Part shown: piece by piece, positions 1,663-22,854 of the stretch
Layout of the letters: each line of letters begins with the position of its first letter
Numbering within the stretch: position 1 is the first letter of the stretch
DNA from: Halodesulfurarchaeum sp.
GTDB lineage: Archaea; Halobacteriota; Halobacteria; Halobacteriales; Halobacteriaceae
Assembly (NCBI GenBank): GCA_042216015.1
Contig: JBDGUI010000025.1
Coordinates: 1-22,939, forward strand
Direction of reading: 5' to 3'
Length of the DNA: 22,939 nucleotides
The notes under the pieces: generated by a model
What the model saw: the letters and a program-made list of their open reading frames with translations, nothing else
Databases searched by the model: none
Told to the model about the DNA's origin: nothing
Made by a program: the position numbers and the translations under genes

Positions 1663-2196
1663 TTACCGCCCCTCAGCCAGCCGGATGCTCATCTCCCGCT
1701 CGAAGTCCTCGGCGCCGGTCCCTTCGAAACCGACCTTCCGGTAGAGGTAGGTGGCGGGCTTGTTCCACCGCTCGACGGTCAGCCAGACCCTCTCGACCCC
1801 GTTTTCGGCCGCATGCCCCAGCAGGGCCTCCAGGAGTTTCGTGCCGATTCCGGCGTCCTGGTAATCCTGATGGACGAAGATCGCGAGTTCGTAGGCGCCC
1901 TCGTCGTCCCCGACCAGTGTGGCGTGGCCGATCAGGTCGCCGTCGTGGCTTGCGACGACGTTGTAACAGTCCTGACAGAGGAGGTGATCGAGCCATTCCC
2001 GAATGGCCCCCTCGCCCACCGGGGGGATCCCCTGGGCCCGCTCTGCGGGGTCGAAGTCGGCGTACATCTCGACGAGTCCGTTCAGTTCGTCGTCGTATAT
2101 CTCGATCTCGACCGTTCTCCCCTCCTCGTCGGTCCACCCCATCGGCGGAGTCGGGAACGGGCCGGCTGCCTCCTCGGGATACCGTCTGTCGGTCAT
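1663..2196 (-). CDS. GNAT family N-acetyltransferase (Pat-like protein lysine acetyltransferase candidate)
   Basis: Acetyl-CoA motif A FVHQDYQDAGIGTKLL and motif B NKPATYLYRKVGF. The start overlaps the uspA stop (ATGA, 2193-2196). Confidence 0.9.
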   Translation of the reverse strand: MTDRRYPEEAAGPFPTPPMGWTDEEGRTVEIEIYDDELNGLVEMYADFDPAERAQGIPPVGEGAIREWLDHLLCQDCYNVVASHDGDLIGHATLVGDDEGAYELAIFVHQDYQDAGIGTKLLEALLGHAAENGVERVWLTVERWNKPATYLYRKVGFEGTGAEDFEREMSIRLAEGR

Positions 2197-2561
2197 CTGA
2201 GCAGGGTCACGCTGACGTGGGAGTTGAGCAGGACGAACTCGGCGACGGAGCCGATCCGGATCTTGCCCATCGGGCTCTGCTCGCCGCCGCCCAGCACGAT
2301 GCGATCGAATTCCTCGGATTCGGCGATCTCCACCACGCGGCTGCCCGGATGCCCCTCGATCCGTCTCACGTCAACCTCGGGGAGTGTCCCCTCGACCACC
2401 TCCCGGACGGCCGTCTCGGTCTCGTCCATGGAGCCCTCCCCGTCGGGATGTTCGAGGACGGCGACCGTGAGGTCGTCCCCGACCGATCGAACCCGCTCGA
2501 CGGTCCGCTCGAGCGCTCCGAGCGAGTCAGAACCGGCCTGCAACCCGAACAGCACCTTCAT
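2193..2561 (-). CDS. Universal stress protein (UspA family)
   Basis: 122 aa with IEGHPGSRVVEIAESEEFDRIVLGG and the USP C-terminal motif IGSVAEFVLLNSHVSVTLLR. Confidence 0.85.
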   Translation of the reverse strand: MKVLFGLQAGSDSLGALERTVERVRSVGDDLTVAVLEHPDGEGSMDETETAVREVVEGTLPEVDVRRIEGHPGSRVVEIAESEEFDRIVLGGGEQSPMGKIRIGSVAEFVLLNSHVSVTLLR

Positions 2562-8352: not shown

Positions 8353-9513
8353 ATGACCGACTTCGACATCATCCCGCCGGAGAAAATCGCCTCCGGCGAG
8401 GCGACCGACGCCTACTTCGACCGAACCGTCGAGACCCTCGAGGCAGCCGGTCGGAATCCGCGGGTCGTCGCGGAGGTGACCGCCGATCAGTTCTCCGACG
8501 GGGAGTTCGAACTACTCGCCGGCCTCGAGGACGCCGTGGCGCTTCTCGAGGGCCACCCGGTCGACGTCTGGGCCCTCCCGGAGGGGACGCTCTTCGACGG
8601 TGGGCCGGTCATGCGGATCGAGGGGAATTACCTCGAGTTCGCCCGCTTCGAGACCTCCCTCCTCGGCTTTCTCTCCCACGCGAGCGGAATCGCCACGCAC
8701 GCCATGGAGGTCGCAGAGGCCGCCGGCGAGACCCCCGTGTTGAGCTTCGGAGCCCGTCACGTTCACCCCTCGATGGCCGGCGTCGTGGAGCGTTCGGCCC
8801 TGCTCGGTGGCATGGACGGGTTCTCACACGTCGCCGCGGGGGACCTCCTCGGCCGGGAGGCGAGCGGAACGATGCCCCACGCACTTTTGATCTGCTTCGG
8901 TCGGGGCAATCAGGAGGCGGCCTGGCGGGCCTACGACGAGGCCGTCTCGCCGGACACCCCGCGGGTGGCACTCTGTGATACGTACTCCGACGAGGTTGAC
9001 GAGGTGCTCCGGGCCGTCGAGACGCTCGGAGCGGACCTCGACAGCGTTCGGCTGGACACCACCTCCTCGCGCCGGGGCGATTTCGAACGCATCGTCCGGG
9101 AGACCCGCTGGGAACTCGAGGCCCGCGGGCACGATCACGTCGACATCTTCGTGAGCGGCGGGCTGGGTCCGGCGGACCTCCGCAATCTCCGGGAATACGT
9201 CGACGGCTTCGGGGTAGGCGGGTACGTGAGCAACGCCGATCCCGTCGACTTCGCCCTCGACATCGTCGAGGTGGAGGGCGAACCGGCGGCAAAGCGCGGG
9301 AAACGCTCGGGGAAAAAGCAGGTCTATCGGACGCCGGACGGCGGCCATCACGTGACCCTTATCGACCGTGTCGGTCCGTCCGGCGGCACGGCACTGCTGG
9401 AACCCGTGATCGAGGACGGGACGGTGGTCCGGGAGTTCGACCTCGACGCGGCCATCGATCGGGCCGAGCGCGACAGGGACCGCGTGGACCCGTTCACCGA
9501 TCCCGGCGCGTGA
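8353..9513 (+). CDS. pncB: Nicotinate phosphoribosyltransferase
   Basis: ATDAYF, FETSLLGFLSHASGIAT, SFGARHVHP, SGTMPHAL (phospho-His motif), LCDTY, VRLDT, FVSGGL, FGVG, AKRGK. Confidence 0.92.
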   Translation: MTDFDIIPPEKIASGEATDAYFDRTVETLEAAGRNPRVVAEVTADQFSDGEFELLAGLEDAVALLEGHPVDVWALPEGTLFDGGPVMRIEGNYLEFARFETSLLGFLSHASGIATHAMEVAEAAGETPVLSFGARHVHPSMAGVVERSALLGGMDGFSHVAAGDLLGREASGTMPHALLICFGRGNQEAAWRAYDEAVSPDTPRVALCDTYSDEVDEVLRAVETLGADLDSVRLDTTSSRRGDFERIVRETRWELEARGHDHVDIFVSGGLGPADLRNLREYVDGFGVGGYVSNADPVDFALDIVEVEGEPAAKRGKRSGKKQVYRTPDGGHHVTLIDRVGPSGGTALLEPVIEDGTVVREFDLDAAIDRAERDRDRVDPFTDPGA

Positions 9514-15356: not shown

Positions 15357-17981
15357 TCAGGGAACGACGACGATCGTTCCGAAGGAGGCCTCGAGCACGG
15401 CGACCTCCTCGCCGGCCTCGGTCCGGTACTCGGTGTTCACCGAGACCATCTCCGGGTCGACCGTCACCGTCGAGCCATCGATGGACACCTCGACGGGCCC
15501 GCCGGAATCCAGCTGGGCCTTGATCGTGTCCGGATCGCTTCCCTCGAGGGCGGCCATGACCCTTCCGGCCTCGTCCCGGAAGGTCGGCCCGATCTGGGCC
15601 TCGTCCGGGTCGACGTCCGTGGCGACCTCCTCGAGGTCGGGCCGTCCGATCGACGTGCGGATCGGGGCTCCAACGGTCTCGCTCAGGTCGTAGGTGTCGA
15701 CGCCGTGCTGTGGTTCCTCCTCGAAGTACAGTTCGACGCGTTCGAGTTCGGCGTTCAGCGCGATCCCCTGCTCGGACTTCCAGGCCCGGACCGTCCGGGC
15801 GGCCTCGGCGATGTCCTCGCCGACGGTCGTGTCACCGTCGGGTGTCTCGGTTCCGGGCCAGTCGGCCCGGTGGACACTCCCCTCGGTCCCCGGCAGGTGG
15901 TGCCAGATCTCCTCCGCGAGGAAGGGGCTGAAGGGCGCGAGCAATCGGACGACTGCCGAGAGCGTTTCGTAGAGCGCTGCCCGGGCGGCGTCACGCTCGC
16001 CCGGCCGGCCGTTGTAGAGTCGGCCCTTTACCAGTTCGAGGTAGTCGTCGGCGAGGTCCTCCCAGACGAACTCCCGGAGGGTCCTGACGGCGATGTCGAA
16101 CCGATTATCGTCCATCGCGTCGGTCATCTCCCCGGTGACGGTCGCGAGGCGGTCGAGAATCCAGCGGTCGGTGTCTCGGTAGGCCGGCGCGGTGATCTCG
16201 GGTGTATCCGCATCGAGGTGGCCGCTGGCAAAGCGGAAGACGTTCCAGAGCTTCGTCAGGAACCGCGAGGCCGCGGTGACCTCTTTCCACTGGAACTGGA
16301 CGTCGGCCCCCGGTTGTCCGCCGACGGCCATCGCCTGCCGGAAGGCGTCGGCGCTCTCCTCCTCGAGCACCTCGTCGGGCGAGACGACGTTCCCCCGGGA
16401 TTTGGACATCTTGTTTCCGTCGGGGCCGAAGACCATGCCGTTGATCAGCGCGGTGTCCCACGGTTTCTCCTCCTCGAGTGCCGCGGTCCGGAGGATGGTG
16501 TAGAACGCCCAGGTGCGGATGATGTCGTGGCCCTGCTCGCGGAGCGCCACGGGCTCGAAGGGCTCCTCCGGCCAGCCGGCGACGTGCATCGCCGAGATGG
16601 AGGAGTCCATCCAGGTGTCCATCACGTCGGTCTCGCCGGACCACTCACCCGCCCCGCACTCGGGGCACGTCTCGATTGCCGGTTCGTGTTCGGTCGGCTC
16701 GACCGGCAGCTCCTCGACGTCGGCGATCTCCCAGTGGCCACAGTCTTCACACTGCCAGGCCGGGATCGGCGTCGCGAAGACGCGCTGACGGGAGATGACC
16801 CAGTCCCAGCTCATCCCCTCGGTCCACTCCTCGAGGCGGGCGTACATGTGCTCGGGAATCCACTCGACCTCCTGGGCCTTCTCGAGGATCTCGTCCTGGC
16901 GGACCTCGACGAACCACTGATCCTTCGAGAGGATCTCGATCGGGGTGTCACACCGCCAGCAGACCCCGACGGACTGCTCGACCGGCTCGCTGTCCACGAG
17001 CAGCCCCTCCTCCTCGAGGTCGGCGGGGATCTCCTCCGTTGCCTCCTCGATCGAGAGGCCCTCGTACTCCCCGGCGAGGTCGTTGAGGTGGCCGTCCTCG
17101 GTGAGCACCGCCCGGAGGTCGAGGTCGTACTCGGCCCACCAGTCCACGTCCTGTTTGTCCCCGAAGGTCGAGATCATCACCGCGCCGGTTCCGAACTCGG
17201 GGTCGACCGCATCGTCGGCGAGGAGTTCGACCTCCTGGCCGATCGGGGGGACCTCGAAGGTGTCACCGACTCGCCCTGCGTAGCGGTCGTCCTCGGGATG
17301 GACCGCCACTGCGCCGGTCGCGGCGAGGAGTTCCGGACGGGTCGTTGCAATTTCGACGTCGTCGTTGTCGATTCCGGGAAATCTGATGGTGTAGAGGGTG
17401 CCCTCCCGGTCCTCGGTTTCGACCTCGGCGTCCGCGATCGCGGTCTGGCAGCGGGGACACCAGTTGACGGGGTGCTCGTCCCGGTAGACGTAGTCCTTCT
17501 CGGCCATCTCGACGAAGGAACGCTGGGTCTTCCCCCAGTAGCTCGGGTCCATCGTGCGGAACTCCTGGTCCCAGTCCTGGGAGAACCCCAGTCGACGCAT
17601 CTGGGTGCGCATTGCGTCGATCTGGTCCTCCGTGTGATTCACGCACATCTGGCGGAACTCCTCCCGAGGGACGTCGGTCCGGTGGATCCCCTGATTCTCC
17701 TCGACTTTCACCTCCGTCGGGAGGCCGTGGCAGTCCCATCCCTGCGGGAACAGCACGTCCTCGCCCTGCATCCGGCGATACCTGGCGAGGAAATCCATGT
17801 AGCACCAGCCCAGTGCGTTGCCGATGTGGAGATTGCCGGTCGGGTACGGGGGCGGCGTGTCGATCACGTAGTCGGTGGCGCCGGTGTCCTCGTAGGCGTA
17901 CACCGACTCCTCGAGCCAGTAGTTCTCCCACTCGGATTCGATCCGCTCGGGCTCGTAGTTCTCGGGGATGTCCTGTGTCAT
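15357..17981 (-). CDS. valS: Valine--tRNA ligase
   Basis: [16 protein letters not shown] (HIGH motif), [34 protein letters not shown] editing domain, [18 protein letters not shown] and KMSKS. Confidence 0.97.
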
Positions 17982-18080
17982 GGGTGGTCATGGAGTCGCC
18001 GCTTCTCGACGGAAACCACACGAGAAACGCGTGTAGTCCTGCCCGCGAGTCTACTCACGTACTACCGCGACGACGCACAT
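17982..18080 (-). promoter_or_regulatory. Structured valS 5' leader with alternative helices (candidate attenuator)
   Basis: Complementary segments (+ coordinates): 18067-18074 with 17995-18002; hairpin 18044-18059; 18030-18038 with 18014-18022; 18021-18029 with 18000-18008. Confidence 0.6.
18051..18080 (-). CDS. Putative valine-rich leader peptide (uORF) of valS, MCVVAVVRE
   Basis: The minus strand reads ATG TGC GTC GTC GCG GTA GTA CGT GAG TAG. Four of the 8 non-initiator codons are Val. The ATG is about 27 nt downstream of a TTTAAAA box. Confidence 0.7.
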   Translation of the reverse strand: MCVVAVVRE

Positions 18081-18103
18081 ACTCGATTCACACGCGCCGT
18101 CGG

Positions 18104-18110
18104 TTTTAAA
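18104..18110 (-). promoter_or_regulatory. TATA box of the leader-valS transcript
   Basis: TTTAAAA on the minus strand in a very GC-rich context. No comparable box sits at the right distance from the valS ATG itself. Confidence 0.7.
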
Positions 18111-18196
18111 GATTGCCGTTGAATCGCCAGTCCCGTTCTGGCGTTTCTCGTGACGGGTCCGGGAGCTTAAGCACCGGGTCGCCCATCATCCCATGT

Positions 18197-19054
18197 ATGG
18201 CCGGTCGAATCCTCGTCACCGGGGCCACCGGGACCGTCGGATCGGCACTGGTGTCATCTCTCCCCGACGAACGGGACCGCCCCCGCGTCGCGTCCCGGAA
18301 TCCGGACCAGGCCGCAGCGTCATTCGAGTGCCCCGTGGAGGCCGTCGAGTTCTCCCTCGAGCGACCGGAGACGTGGGGAGCGACACTCGAGGGGGTCGAT
18401 AGCCTGTTTCTGCTCTGGCCACCCGGCACGCGCGTGGGGTCGGTTACCGAGTTCATCGCTGCAGCGGGGAGAACCGGAGTCGACCACGTCGTCTTCCTGT
18501 CGGTCCTCGGCGCCGAGAAGCTCCCGGTTCTTCCCCACCACCGCATCGAGCGGTCTCTCGGTTCCGCCGACCTGACGGACACTGTCCTCCGAGCGGCATA
18601 TTTCGCCCAGAACCTGACCGGCGTGCATCGCCCAGAGATCGTGGACCGGGATGAGATTTTCATCCCGGCCGGCTCGGGCCGGCTGGGAATCGTCGACGCG
18701 CGGGACGTCGGTGAAGTCGCCGCACGCATCCTTAAGGAGGGGTCCAATCGGAATCGAGCACACACCCTCACGGGACCTGTGGCCATCGATTTCTCTCGTG
18801 TCGCCCGGATCGCAAGTGACGTGCTCGACCGGGAGATTCGATATCCCGACCCCTCCATTCCCAGATTTGCCGCTCGCATGGTGAAACGGGACGTGGCGCC
18901 CGGACTTATCGCGTTCATGATCGGGGAATATACAGTCGCCCGGCTGGGGTTTGCCTCACGAACGACGGACGACGTCGAAGAAATCCTCGGGCGCAAACCC
19001 CGGTCAGTCCGGACCTTCTTCGCCGATCACCGCTCCCGATTCGAGTCGGGGTAA
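18197..19054 (+). CDS. NmrA-like atypical SDR / NAD(P)H-binding protein
   Basis: From ATG 18197: ILVTGATGTVGS, VFLSVLGAEK, HHRIE, LRAAYFAQNL, VDARDVGEVAA, HTLTGP. CTTAAG box at about 18166-18171. Confidence 0.85.
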   Translation: MAGRILVTGATGTVGSALVSSLPDERDRPRVASRNPDQAAASFECPVEAVEFSLERPETWGATLEGVDSLFLLWPPGTRVGSVTEFIAAAGRTGVDHVVFLSVLGAEKLPVLPHHRIERSLGSADLTDTVLRAAYFAQNLTGVHRPEIVDRDEIFIPAGSGRLGIVDARDVGEVAARILKEGSNRNRAHTLTGPVAIDFSRVARIASDVLDREIRYPDPSIPRFAARMVKRDVAPGLIAFMIGEYTVARLGFASRTTDDVEEILGRKPRSVRTFFADHRSRFESG

Positions 19055-22697: not shown

Positions 22698-22770
22698 GGG
22701 CCCGTAGCTCAGTGGACAGAGTCCTTGGTTCCGGACCAAGATGTCACGGGTTCAAATCCCGTCGGGTCCG
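22698..22770 (+). tRNA. tRNA-Arg(CCG)
   Basis: 73-nt cloverleaf: acceptor GGGCCCG/CGGGTCC, D-arm GCTC/GAGT, anticodon arm CTTGG-TTCCGGA-CCAAG, T-arm ACGGG-TTCAAAT-CCCGT. No intron and no encoded CCA. Confidence 0.96.
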
Positions 22771-22854
22771 CTTCTGCGACGATCGAAGGTGAGGAGCGAA
22801 GCGGACACGGGTTTTGAAGTACGGAAAACGCGAGCGGAGCGAGCGTTTTCAGGT

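Follow-up and report, generated by a model that had tools for sequence, protein, structure and literature searches.

A candidate leaderless leader-peptide attenuator in front of the valyl-tRNA synthetase gene of Halobacteria

The window analysed here is a whole stretch of 22,939 nucleotides from Halodesulfurarchaeum sp. (GenBank assembly GCA_042216015.1, contig JBDGUI010000025.1, positions 1 to 22,939), whose minus strand carries valS, the gene for valyl-tRNA synthetase (ValRS). We suggest that the valS messenger RNA (mRNA) of Halobacteria begins with a leaderless leader-peptide attenuator sensing valyl-tRNA, a reading that we rate slightly above even odds (roughly 0.55). The proposed sensor is a very short upstream open reading frame (uORF) that contains two consecutive GTA valine codons, and this uORF is conserved in front of valS far beyond chance. 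In the aligned leaders, a long-range helix named P1 covaries between clades and links the uORF to the region of the valS start. Attenuation by helix opening is a conditional reading of these two features, and other explanations of the same sequences are weighed below.

Conservation and predicted leaderless context of the valine uORF

The elements of the window around the start of valS are as follows.

15357..17981, minus strand: valS, with its ATG at 17981; an open reading frame of 874 amino acids and the gene presumed to be regulated
18051..18080, minus strand: uORF MCVVAVVRE*, nine codons and a stop, with the ATG at 18080 and the TAG at 18053-18051
18060..18065, minus strand: tandem GUA GUA, the proposed sensing codons
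18057..18059, minus strand: arginine codon CGT after the valine pair
18110-18104, minus strand: TATA box TTTAAAA of the valS leader promoter
18119-18111, minus strand: purine-rich stretch 5' of the TATA box, resembling a transcription factor B recognition element (BRE); the promoter in all spans 18104..18119

The valS product is a valine--tRNA ligase according to both Pfam and NCBIfam (NF009687, 1013 bits; TIGR00422). A first-pass annotation of the window had proposed the uORF as a valine-responsive leader peptide, and the sequence and coordinates that it gave for TATA box, ATG and stop codon are correct. The gap between the uORF stop and the valS ATG, reported there as 70 nucleotides (nt), is actually 69 nt. 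The reported distance of about 27 nt from the TATA box applies to the centre of the box (near -27), and the first T of TTTAAAA lies 30 nt 5' of the A of the uORF ATG. Valine occupies four of the eight non-initiator codons, as one GTC GTC and one GTA GTA pair. The described bias, with half of the codons in two valine pairs, is thus real in the window, but only GTA GTA is conserved beyond the genus. The GTC GTC pair is peculiar to the genus of the window, where it is part of an RNA helix. GTA was rightly described as uncommon in the window, since it accounts for 1 of the 69 valine codons in valS and for 13 of 525 (2.5%) across 19 predicted genes. Among 44 short ATG open reading frames of the window (6-15 codons, both strands), two consist to at least 50% of a single residue, and GTA GTA is present only in the valS uORF.

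Relatives were gathered with a ValRS protein scan restricted to one genome per species, which yielded 326 relatives, and the best 80 were taken, all of them near the order Halobacteriales. Four loci (L060, L069, L074 and L077) do not contain the 5' end of the gene, which leaves 76 loci and, together with the window, 77 sequences. The closest relatives are Halodesulfurarchaeum metagenome-assembled genomes (MAGs) with 80-92% protein identity. The other relatives have 60-71% identity and belong to Natronomonas, Halococcus, Halorussus, Halorientalis, Halomicrococcus, Halobacterium, Halospeciosus, Haladaptatus, Salarchaeum, Halapricum, Salinibaculum, Halomarina, Halovenus and unclassified Halobacteria. 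The 77 valS upstream regions thereby cover 14 named genera as well as unclassified MAGs. The first-pass annotation had regarded a uORF or valine bias missing from relatives as grounds for giving up the idea. Instead, a short ATG uORF (7-13 codons) with in-frame GTA GTA precedes valS in 75 of the 77 sequences, the other two carry one GTA, and none is without it. Natural single-codon variants are found at L039:2407 and L065:1890 (+), which read GTA GCA and GCA GTA, respectively; both MAG leaders keep the promoter, the frame, an arginine codon (CGA), the stop and a T tract downstream.

In the window and 73 loci, the uORF with GTA GTA is mostly located 75-120 nt before the valS ATG, and farther away in a few long leaders. 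The leaders of L034, L067 and L008 (237, 166 and 197 nt, respectively) contain the full element (about 103 nt), after which another 60-130 nt precede the chosen valS ATG. These long leaders may represent an insertion into the leader or an N-terminally extended ValRS, and L008 has an in-frame ATG 48 nt upstream. In L076, a Halodesulfurarchaeum MAG, about 330 nt separate the uORF MRAVAVVRE (2171-2200, plus strand) from valS, and they include a run of N, hence this part of the leader is either masked or missing from the assembly. Across 573 kb of sequence from 81 sources, searched on both strands, a pattern of ATG, 2-6 codons, GTAGTA, 0-5 codons and a stop occurs only in valS leaders. The same 573 kb contain 77 leaderless short reading frames of 5-16 codons positioned behind a BRE and TATA box, of which 74 are valS leaders. 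Among the eight closest genomes, the DNA 5' of the TATA box shows no relationship between genomes, whereas the TATA box, the uORF and a leader of about 100 nt are kept.

The uORF is conserved in a manner expected of a translated frame. GTA GTA is invariant in 74 aligned leaders, and its distance from the ATG is 18 nt in 61 of them, 15 nt in 12 and 9 nt in one, without exception divisible by three. Upstream of GTA GTA, 74/74 leaders have an in-frame ATG within 24 nt, and 3/74 have one in another frame. An in-frame stop follows GTA GTA within five codons in 74/74 leaders, compared to 9/74 in frame +2. The stops are TAG (29), TAA (23) and TGA (22) at varying positions, hence what is conserved is the function of a stop and not a sequence. 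The 74 leaders encode 49 distinct peptides of 7-13 residues, with only (Ser/Ala)-Val-Val-Arg as a common core. The codon before the valine pair is TCG in 47 leaders, GCG in 14 and another codon in 13. The codon after it is CGT in 60 leaders, CGC in 5, CGA in 6, CGG in one and a different codon in two, with the third base varying within arginine. Within the valS genes themselves, GTA makes up 0.6% of 4891 valine codons, and none of 241 Val-Val pairs is encoded by GTA-GTA. Taken together, frame, stop, variable peptide and codon choice are characteristic of a regulatory frame that is translated for the sake of particular codons rather than for its product. We infer from these patterns that the uORF is translated. 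GUA is the rarest valine codon in the genes compared, and tandem, rare and cognate codons in front of a synthetase gene are a hallmark of amino-acid sensing, such that the uORF would be a sensor of valyl-tRNA. Two general features of leader-peptide attenuation are present here, namely a leader reading frame conserved as a reading frame and consecutive cognate codons ahead of valS.

The uORF is predicted to be leaderless, with its ATG at the transcription start. Anchored on the uORF ATG, 72/72 leaders have a T at -29, with a TTTAT-type box at -30 to -26, BRE-like enrichment of A-39/G-37/G-35/A-34/A-33 and, in 62/72 leaders, a T at -1. In the available part of a table of transcription start sites (TSS) of Haloferax volcanii, TATA centres are found mostly at -28 from the mapped starts. 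Given this spacing and the TATA spacing in 72/72 leaders, the transcript is predicted to begin with the A of the uORF ATG. The earlier remark that the ATG is placed at a TATA distance typical of leaderless mRNAs therefore fits all 72 sequences analysed. A search of the Hadjeras supplement returned a chance peptide match only. The valS start is largely devoid of Shine-Dalgarno (SD)-like sequence, as an SD-like 4-mer within 18 nt is found in only 7/74 leaders, and positions -12 to -1 consist of 38% C and 31% A in these 74 leaders. The T tract between uORF and valS was considered as a further TATA box that would give valS a promoter of its own. This is unlikely given the poor TATA match and the lack of a BRE, and is further weakened by a distance to the valS ATG that varies from about 40 to 60 nt.

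The long-range helix P1 and a proposed mechanism

Folding of the leader places the following elements in the window.

18067..18074, minus strand: 5' strand of P1, leader nt 7-14 in uORF codons 3-5, in both the minimum free energy (MFE) and the centroid structure
17995..18002, minus strand: 3' strand of P1, leader nt 79-86, 14-21 nt upstream of the valS AUG
18044..18059, minus strand: hairpin H1, leader nt 22-27 with 32-37, with the uORF stop codon in its loop
18015..18037, minus strand: hairpin H2, leader nt 44-51 with 59-66, with the T/C tract (UUUCU) in its loop, in the centroid structure
18022..18027, minus strand: T/C tract TTTCTC, a possible pause or weak terminator signal

P1 was predicted by RNAalifold independently in alignments of the following clades.

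Natronomonas: 11 sequences
Halodesulfurarchaeum: 8 sequences
Halorussus: 8 sequences
Halobacterium: 8 sequences
Haladaptatus/Halomicrococcus: 8 sequences, P1 in part

In P1, the uORF codons that immediately precede GUA GUA, in many clades joined by the leading G and U of the valine pair, are base-paired to a stretch close to the start of valS. Over 74 leaders, the 3' strand covers about -29 to -13 relative to the valS AUG, and the gap that separates it from this AUG has a median of 12 nt. Both strands differ among clades while their complementarity is kept. Among 13 dereplicated representatives, native uORFs pair with their own distal strand at -18.75 kcal/mol, compared to -15.84 kcal/mol after partners are exchanged (permutation p=0.00025). 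With Natronomonas as its only source, a covariance model found the leader in 47 loci and the window at E<1, starting at the uORF ATG, together with 7 weak off-target matches. In the covariance model alignment, 86.4% of cells are paired versus 69.0% in shuffled alignments, and slid registers reach 22-42%. Both sides change in 17 of 22 pairs, compared to 12.3 after shuffling, and neither value was reached in any of 500 shuffles. A MAFFT-based alignment of Natronomonas gives a smaller but consistent signal (covariation score 0.212 vs 0.138, 0/500). The local hairpins show some variation of the same kind in RNAalifold, with one compensatory A-U to U-A change in H1 (in L006) and with pair 47:66 of H2 appearing as AU, GU and GC within the genus.

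A global MAFFT alignment of 71 leaders aligned the uORF well but not the distal strand. RNAalifold on a mixed set of Halobacterium, Salarchaeum and Halospeciosus missed P1 because the 3' strands were misaligned, and the Halobacterium-only set found it. The mixed set produced a local hairpin within leader nt 1-31, in which uORF codons 2-3 pair with the second GUA and the arginine codon (L020, L026, L048, L053, L058, L073, L080, L021, L030 and L036). In the modelled folds of these three genera, the local hairpin might form instead of P1 and would then conceal the sensing codons. Within Halodesulfurarchaeum, CAU at 17992-17990 is predicted to pair with the uORF AUG, which would close the 5' end of the folded leader. 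An out-of-frame ATG is located 10 nt upstream of the valS ATG (17989-17991, minus strand).

We suggest that a ribosome on the uORF controls access to the start of valS. Transcription would start at the A of the uORF ATG, thus a ribosome could load once the 5' end emerges. After four to six variable codons, the ribosome would decode GUA GUA, presumably via a minor tRNA-Val. It would have to open P1 on the way to these codons, and its presence on the uORF would keep P1 melted. If charged tRNA-Val is scarce, a longer dwell at GUA GUA would leave the SD-less front of valS single-stranded and more ValRS would be made. If valyl-tRNA is plentiful, the uORF would be finished fast, P1 would close and initiation at valS would be reduced. 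The output step of the attenuator would hence be translational. The T/C tract inside the P1 domain is probably an RNA polymerase pause or a partial terminator, which would time the decision or add to it. The direction of the response, from shortage to more ValRS, is assumed solely by analogy with the homeostatic logic of bacterial synthetase control. Masking the uORF as by a stalled ribosome raises the modelled unpaired probability of positions -30 to -10 from 0.36 to 0.49, under energy parameters for 37 C and moderate salt, from which the haloarchaeal cytoplasm differs. Accessibility of this segment gains more than 0.1 in 36/74 leaders and falls in 2, such that the modelling supports the mechanism to a modest degree.

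Several points weigh against this mechanism. The start region itself (-18 to +6) barely moves in the model, with an unpaired probability of 0.51 in the free leader, 0.56 with a stalled ribosome and 0.55 with a ribosome at the stop. An explanation by mere masking of the valS start was discarded, as a change from 0.51 to 0.56 is too small to carry the argument. The thermodynamic model also fails to tell a ribosome waiting at GUA GUA apart from one that has reached the stop codon. The folding energy of the window leader is ordinary for its composition (z = -0.67), and 43/200 shuffles fold as well. Base-pair counts are 14.6 in native and 14.2 +/- 0.22 in swapped combinations and do not separate the two; such counts are uninformative in GC-rich RNA, which is why the energy-based swap test was used. 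The covariance model alignment leans towards structure because it is fitted to the structure and includes the 7 off-target rows. The invariance of GUAGUA as nucleotides could reflect a contact with RNA or protein rather than decoding. Under the isoacceptor-charging theory of Elf et al. 2003, rarely used codons reportedly need not be the most sensitive to starvation. The sampling is limited to the best 80 of 326 relatives, with neither Haloferacales nor Natrialbales among them. In the H. volcanii differential RNA sequencing (dRNA-seq) tables, which list locus tags and 70-nt upstream sequences and no gene names, the valS row was not recognised by name, GUA motif or promoter motifs. The response might even have the opposite sign. 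By analogy with termination triggered by uncoupling, it is possible that a stall lowers valS through the T tract. Termination by FttA upon lost coupling to ribosomes is an open hypothesis (PMC11616081), and since uncoupling of the FttA type would reverse the response, either sign would be compatible with the sequence.

Alternative explanations and neighbouring features

The same valine-sensing uORF might have a transcriptional output. The T/C tract would then be a premature terminator, either intrinsic or aided by FttA/aCPSF1, and occupancy of the uORF would decide on read-through into valS as in trp, his or pheST, with P1 acting later as a lock or stabiliser in the read-through RNA. We consider such an output doubtful overall, though attractive in the case of the window. 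A tract containing TTCT, TTTC or TTTT is found between the uORF stop and valS in 71/74 leaders. Intergenic terminators of H. volcanii are T stretches ending at C, among which T5C terminates 95% in vivo, according to the available text of PMC7237163, and a further source available in part reports that aCPSF1 cooperates with U-tracts. In the window, a hairpin of -12.1 kcal/mol with GCG GUA GU in its 5' arm ends directly at UUUCUC, and the 9-mer TTTCTCGTG also follows a clean hairpin on the other strand (18125-18152). The nucleotides preceding the tract are modelled as 0.68 paired as long as the nascent RNA is free; a ribosome placed at GUA GUA lowers this to 0.31, and one at the stop to 0.10. 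Much of this fall has a trivial cause, namely that the short nascent RNA is mostly hidden under the mask. The tracts are usually T2-T4 and thus weaker than T5C, and a distance from GUA GUA to the tract of 9-65 nt implies no fixed geometry of ribosome and polymerase. Pairing of the uORF with the pre-tract segment is not clearly stronger than with swapped partners (p=0.079 for 6 representatives, with 7/49 at z<-2; p=0.068 for 23 representatives), hence a terminator hairpin formed with the uORF was rejected as not significant between clades. The 3' strand of P1 lies beyond the tract and is under selection, which indicates that read-through transcripts matter.

Explanations without valine sensing by decoding appear less probable still. 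The uORF might be translated and constitutive, serving ribosome loading, mRNA stabilisation, termination-reinitiation or a shunt, with GUA GUA kept for pairing or pacing. Such a role is unlikely in our view. Conservation of frame and stop would be explained, as would P1, by which the leader is closed off and the uORF placed close to the valS start, and an SD-less valS start may need special ribosome loading. The first GUA is often part of P1 (G paired in 62/71 and U in 53/71 leaders according to RNAduplex). P1 mostly leaves out the second GUA (with the A of codon 1 paired in 14/71 and the G of codon 2 paired in 12/71), which is equally invariant nonetheless, and a constitutive uORF cannot explain tandem valine codons that are cognate and the rarest synonym in 75/77 sequences. 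Slightly less likely again is an untranslated structured RNA in which GUAGUACG is read by a trans-acting factor, either tRNA-Val in the manner of a T-box or ValRS in the manner of thrS, with ATG and stop being incidental. GUAGUA is invariant as nucleotides and contains UAC, the anticodon of a tRNA-Val, and the leader is extensively structured with covariation. An incidental reading frame is difficult to reconcile with an in-frame ATG at the predicted TSS in 74/74 leaders, with indels between ATG and GUA in multiples of three, and with in-frame stops of three kinds in 74/74 leaders versus 9/74 in another frame. The bases beside GUAGUA vary without compensation and form no anticodon-type stem; in five clade alignments, no anticodon-like stem-loop of the thrS type was found around GUAGUAC. 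Rfam, including T-box, gave no relevant match in the window at 17700-18500 at E up to 10, and at gathering score no family in the leaders of 18 loci, with only RNase P and a tRNA elsewhere. Finally, the uORF might encode a functional micropeptide, with its position before valS being secondary. The conserved C-terminal core (Ser/Ala)-Val-Val-Arg would fit, but the diversity of 49 peptides among 74 leaders, with 7-13 residues and a varying C-terminal tail, makes this very improbable. Moreover, the variable residues covary with their RNA partner and the core valines are always encoded by GTA.

The divergent neighbour of valS has a promoter of its own. An NmrA-like gene on the plus strand starts with an ATG at 18197, with a TATA-like CTTAAG 30 nt upstream and GT before the ATG (18166-18199), a geometry of the leaderless type as in the uORF. 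Since the NmrA-like gene shares this geometry, the 215-nt divergent intergenic region holds two back-to-back leaderless promoters. TTTAAAA was considered as the box of the NmrA-like gene and rejected because CTTAAG occupies the position 30 nt before the NmrA-like ATG, and TTTAAAA is consequently assigned to valS. On the plus strand, the DNA from the valS TATA box to the NmrA-like gene includes a GC-rich hairpin of 6 bp and, after it, TTTCTCGTGA (18125-18152). The sequence TTTCTCGTG occurs only twice in the window, in this plus-strand region and in the valS leader (18027-18019, minus strand), and 1/100 shuffles reached two occurrences. The plus-strand hairpin with TTTCTCGTGA might terminate antisense transcription or represent a terminator-type motif common to both sites. 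The sole other promoter-positioned leaderless short reading frame of the window encodes MHTHGRRLG (8327, plus strand), just 5' of a quinolinate phosphoribosyltransferase-like gene (8353-9513), and has no tandem codons. A tRNA-Arg(CCG) is encoded near the end of the window (22698-22771, plus strand). Among the relatives, an archaeal RNase P RNA is located downstream of valS in Salarchaeum (L030:7305-7618, minus strand) and a tRNA gene upstream of the Halococcus salifodinae valS leader (L064:77-149, minus strand).

Novelty and comparison with known systems

A full-text literature search restricted to papers free of subscription brought up neither a report on a valS leader in archaea nor an attenuator of the leader-peptide or uORF type for any archaeal gene, in line with the first-pass annotation, which knew of no archaeal equivalent for valS. 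The available ribosome profiling (Ribo-seq) literature on H. volcanii covers uORFs in general and does not mention valS in the text at hand, and supplementary tables of small reading frames could hold an unnamed record. The same applies to the supplementary lists of the Weinberg 2017 survey of 224 motifs, whose main text, as far as available, contains no Halobacteria or valS motif. On present evidence, the element represents a new archaeal, leaderless form of a known bacterial control. The odds are marginally in favour of it being the first ribosome-mediated, amino-acid-specific attenuator described in Archaea, in which dwell on two codons of a minor tRNA-Val would lead to helix opening and perhaps to U-tract read-through.

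Leader-peptide attenuation is textbook knowledge in bacteria, and the control of aminoacyl-tRNA synthetase levels in archaea remains largely unknown. If true, the proposed mechanism would constitute a regulatory use of co-transcriptional translation with a eukaryote-like RNA polymerase in at least 14 genera. It would also suggest that further synthetase and amino-acid genes in archaea rich in leaderless mRNAs carry overlooked sensors. Functional reading frames of 7-13 codons fall under every annotation cutoff and most Ribo-seq cutoffs. The valS leader could serve as a test case for the interplay of termination at U-tracts or by FttA with translating ribosomes, itself an open hypothesis (PMC11616081). 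Similarly, it could be a test case for transcription-translation coupling as a means of archaeal regulation and for access to SD-less internal starts in haloarchaea. As the element is small, sharply defined and also present in Halobacterium, with its established genetics, direct experiments are feasible.

Classical leader-peptide transcription attenuation is known from the E. coli trp, his, ilvGMEDA, leu and pheST operons. The valS leader has in common with them a short leader reading frame, tandem cognate codons, a proposed coupling of translation to transcription and a U-rich tract before the gene. The CUA codons of the E. coli leu leader are a precedent for the use of a rare synonym. Classical leader reading frames start at an SD sequence, whereas the valS uORF is predicted to be leaderless. 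Classical attenuators also have a defined terminator/antiterminator pair, in contrast to the valS leader with a hairpin at the tract in the window and uORF:pre-tract pairing at p=0.079 and 0.068. Termination by archaeal RNA polymerase needs no hairpin. Unlike in classical attenuators, the dominant conserved structure of the valS leader is a long-range helix to the start of the gene. T-box RNAs bind uncharged tRNA directly, are untranslated, and control valS and other synthetase genes in bacteria. The haloarchaeal leader resembles them in its valS target, in a probable dependence on tRNA-Val charging and in a GUN codon within a structured leader, and differs in having no T-box match and a frame signature that points to decoding by a ribosome. 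In the bacterial, SD-dependent ermC system, a drug and the nascent peptide cause the ribosome to stall, rather than the supply of charged tRNA. As proposed here for valS, a stalled ribosome in the ermC leader reading frame remodels pairing and opens a downstream start. The synthetase of E. coli thrS binds a tRNA-like operator.

Leaderless leader peptides upstream of tRNA synthetase and amino-acid genes have been described in the bacterium Deinococcus deserti (PMC4007540, whose available text also covers trp attenuation). Likenesses in this text include a TSS at the start codon, which is predicted for the valS uORF, a peptide of about 10 residues, two cognate residues (two Cys in the case of D. 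deserti cysS) and a position upstream of the cognate synthetase gene. The D. deserti leaders differ by a predicted transcription attenuation with bacterial terminators and by SD-bearing target genes, and the available part of PMC4007540 contains no deep comparative or covariation analysis of them. The closest proven relatives by analogy appear to be the leaderless polycysteine small open reading frames (sORFs) of mycobacteria, the 'Cys ribulon' of Canestrari et al., at which, according to the available part of 10.1101/834739, stalled ribosomes block a structure that sequesters the ribosome-binding site belonging to the next gene. A leaderless 5' AUG, predicted in the case of valS, and a run of cognate codons are shared with the mycobacterial sORFs as described there. 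A duplex tying the leader to the ribosome-binding region of the next gene is matched by P1 at -29 to -13, with the AUG itself not being covered, and prevention of the duplex by a stalled ribosome as well as a translational output would be further likenesses of the valS leader. In the same available text, the mycobacterial system is bacterial with an SD-bearing target, whereas the valS leader is archaeal with an SD-less start and a helix that ends about 12 nt before the AUG. The valS leader is further distinguished by two codons of a rare synonym instead of a Cys tract, by the cognate synthetase gene as its target instead of metabolic operons, and by a conserved T tract within the structured domain.

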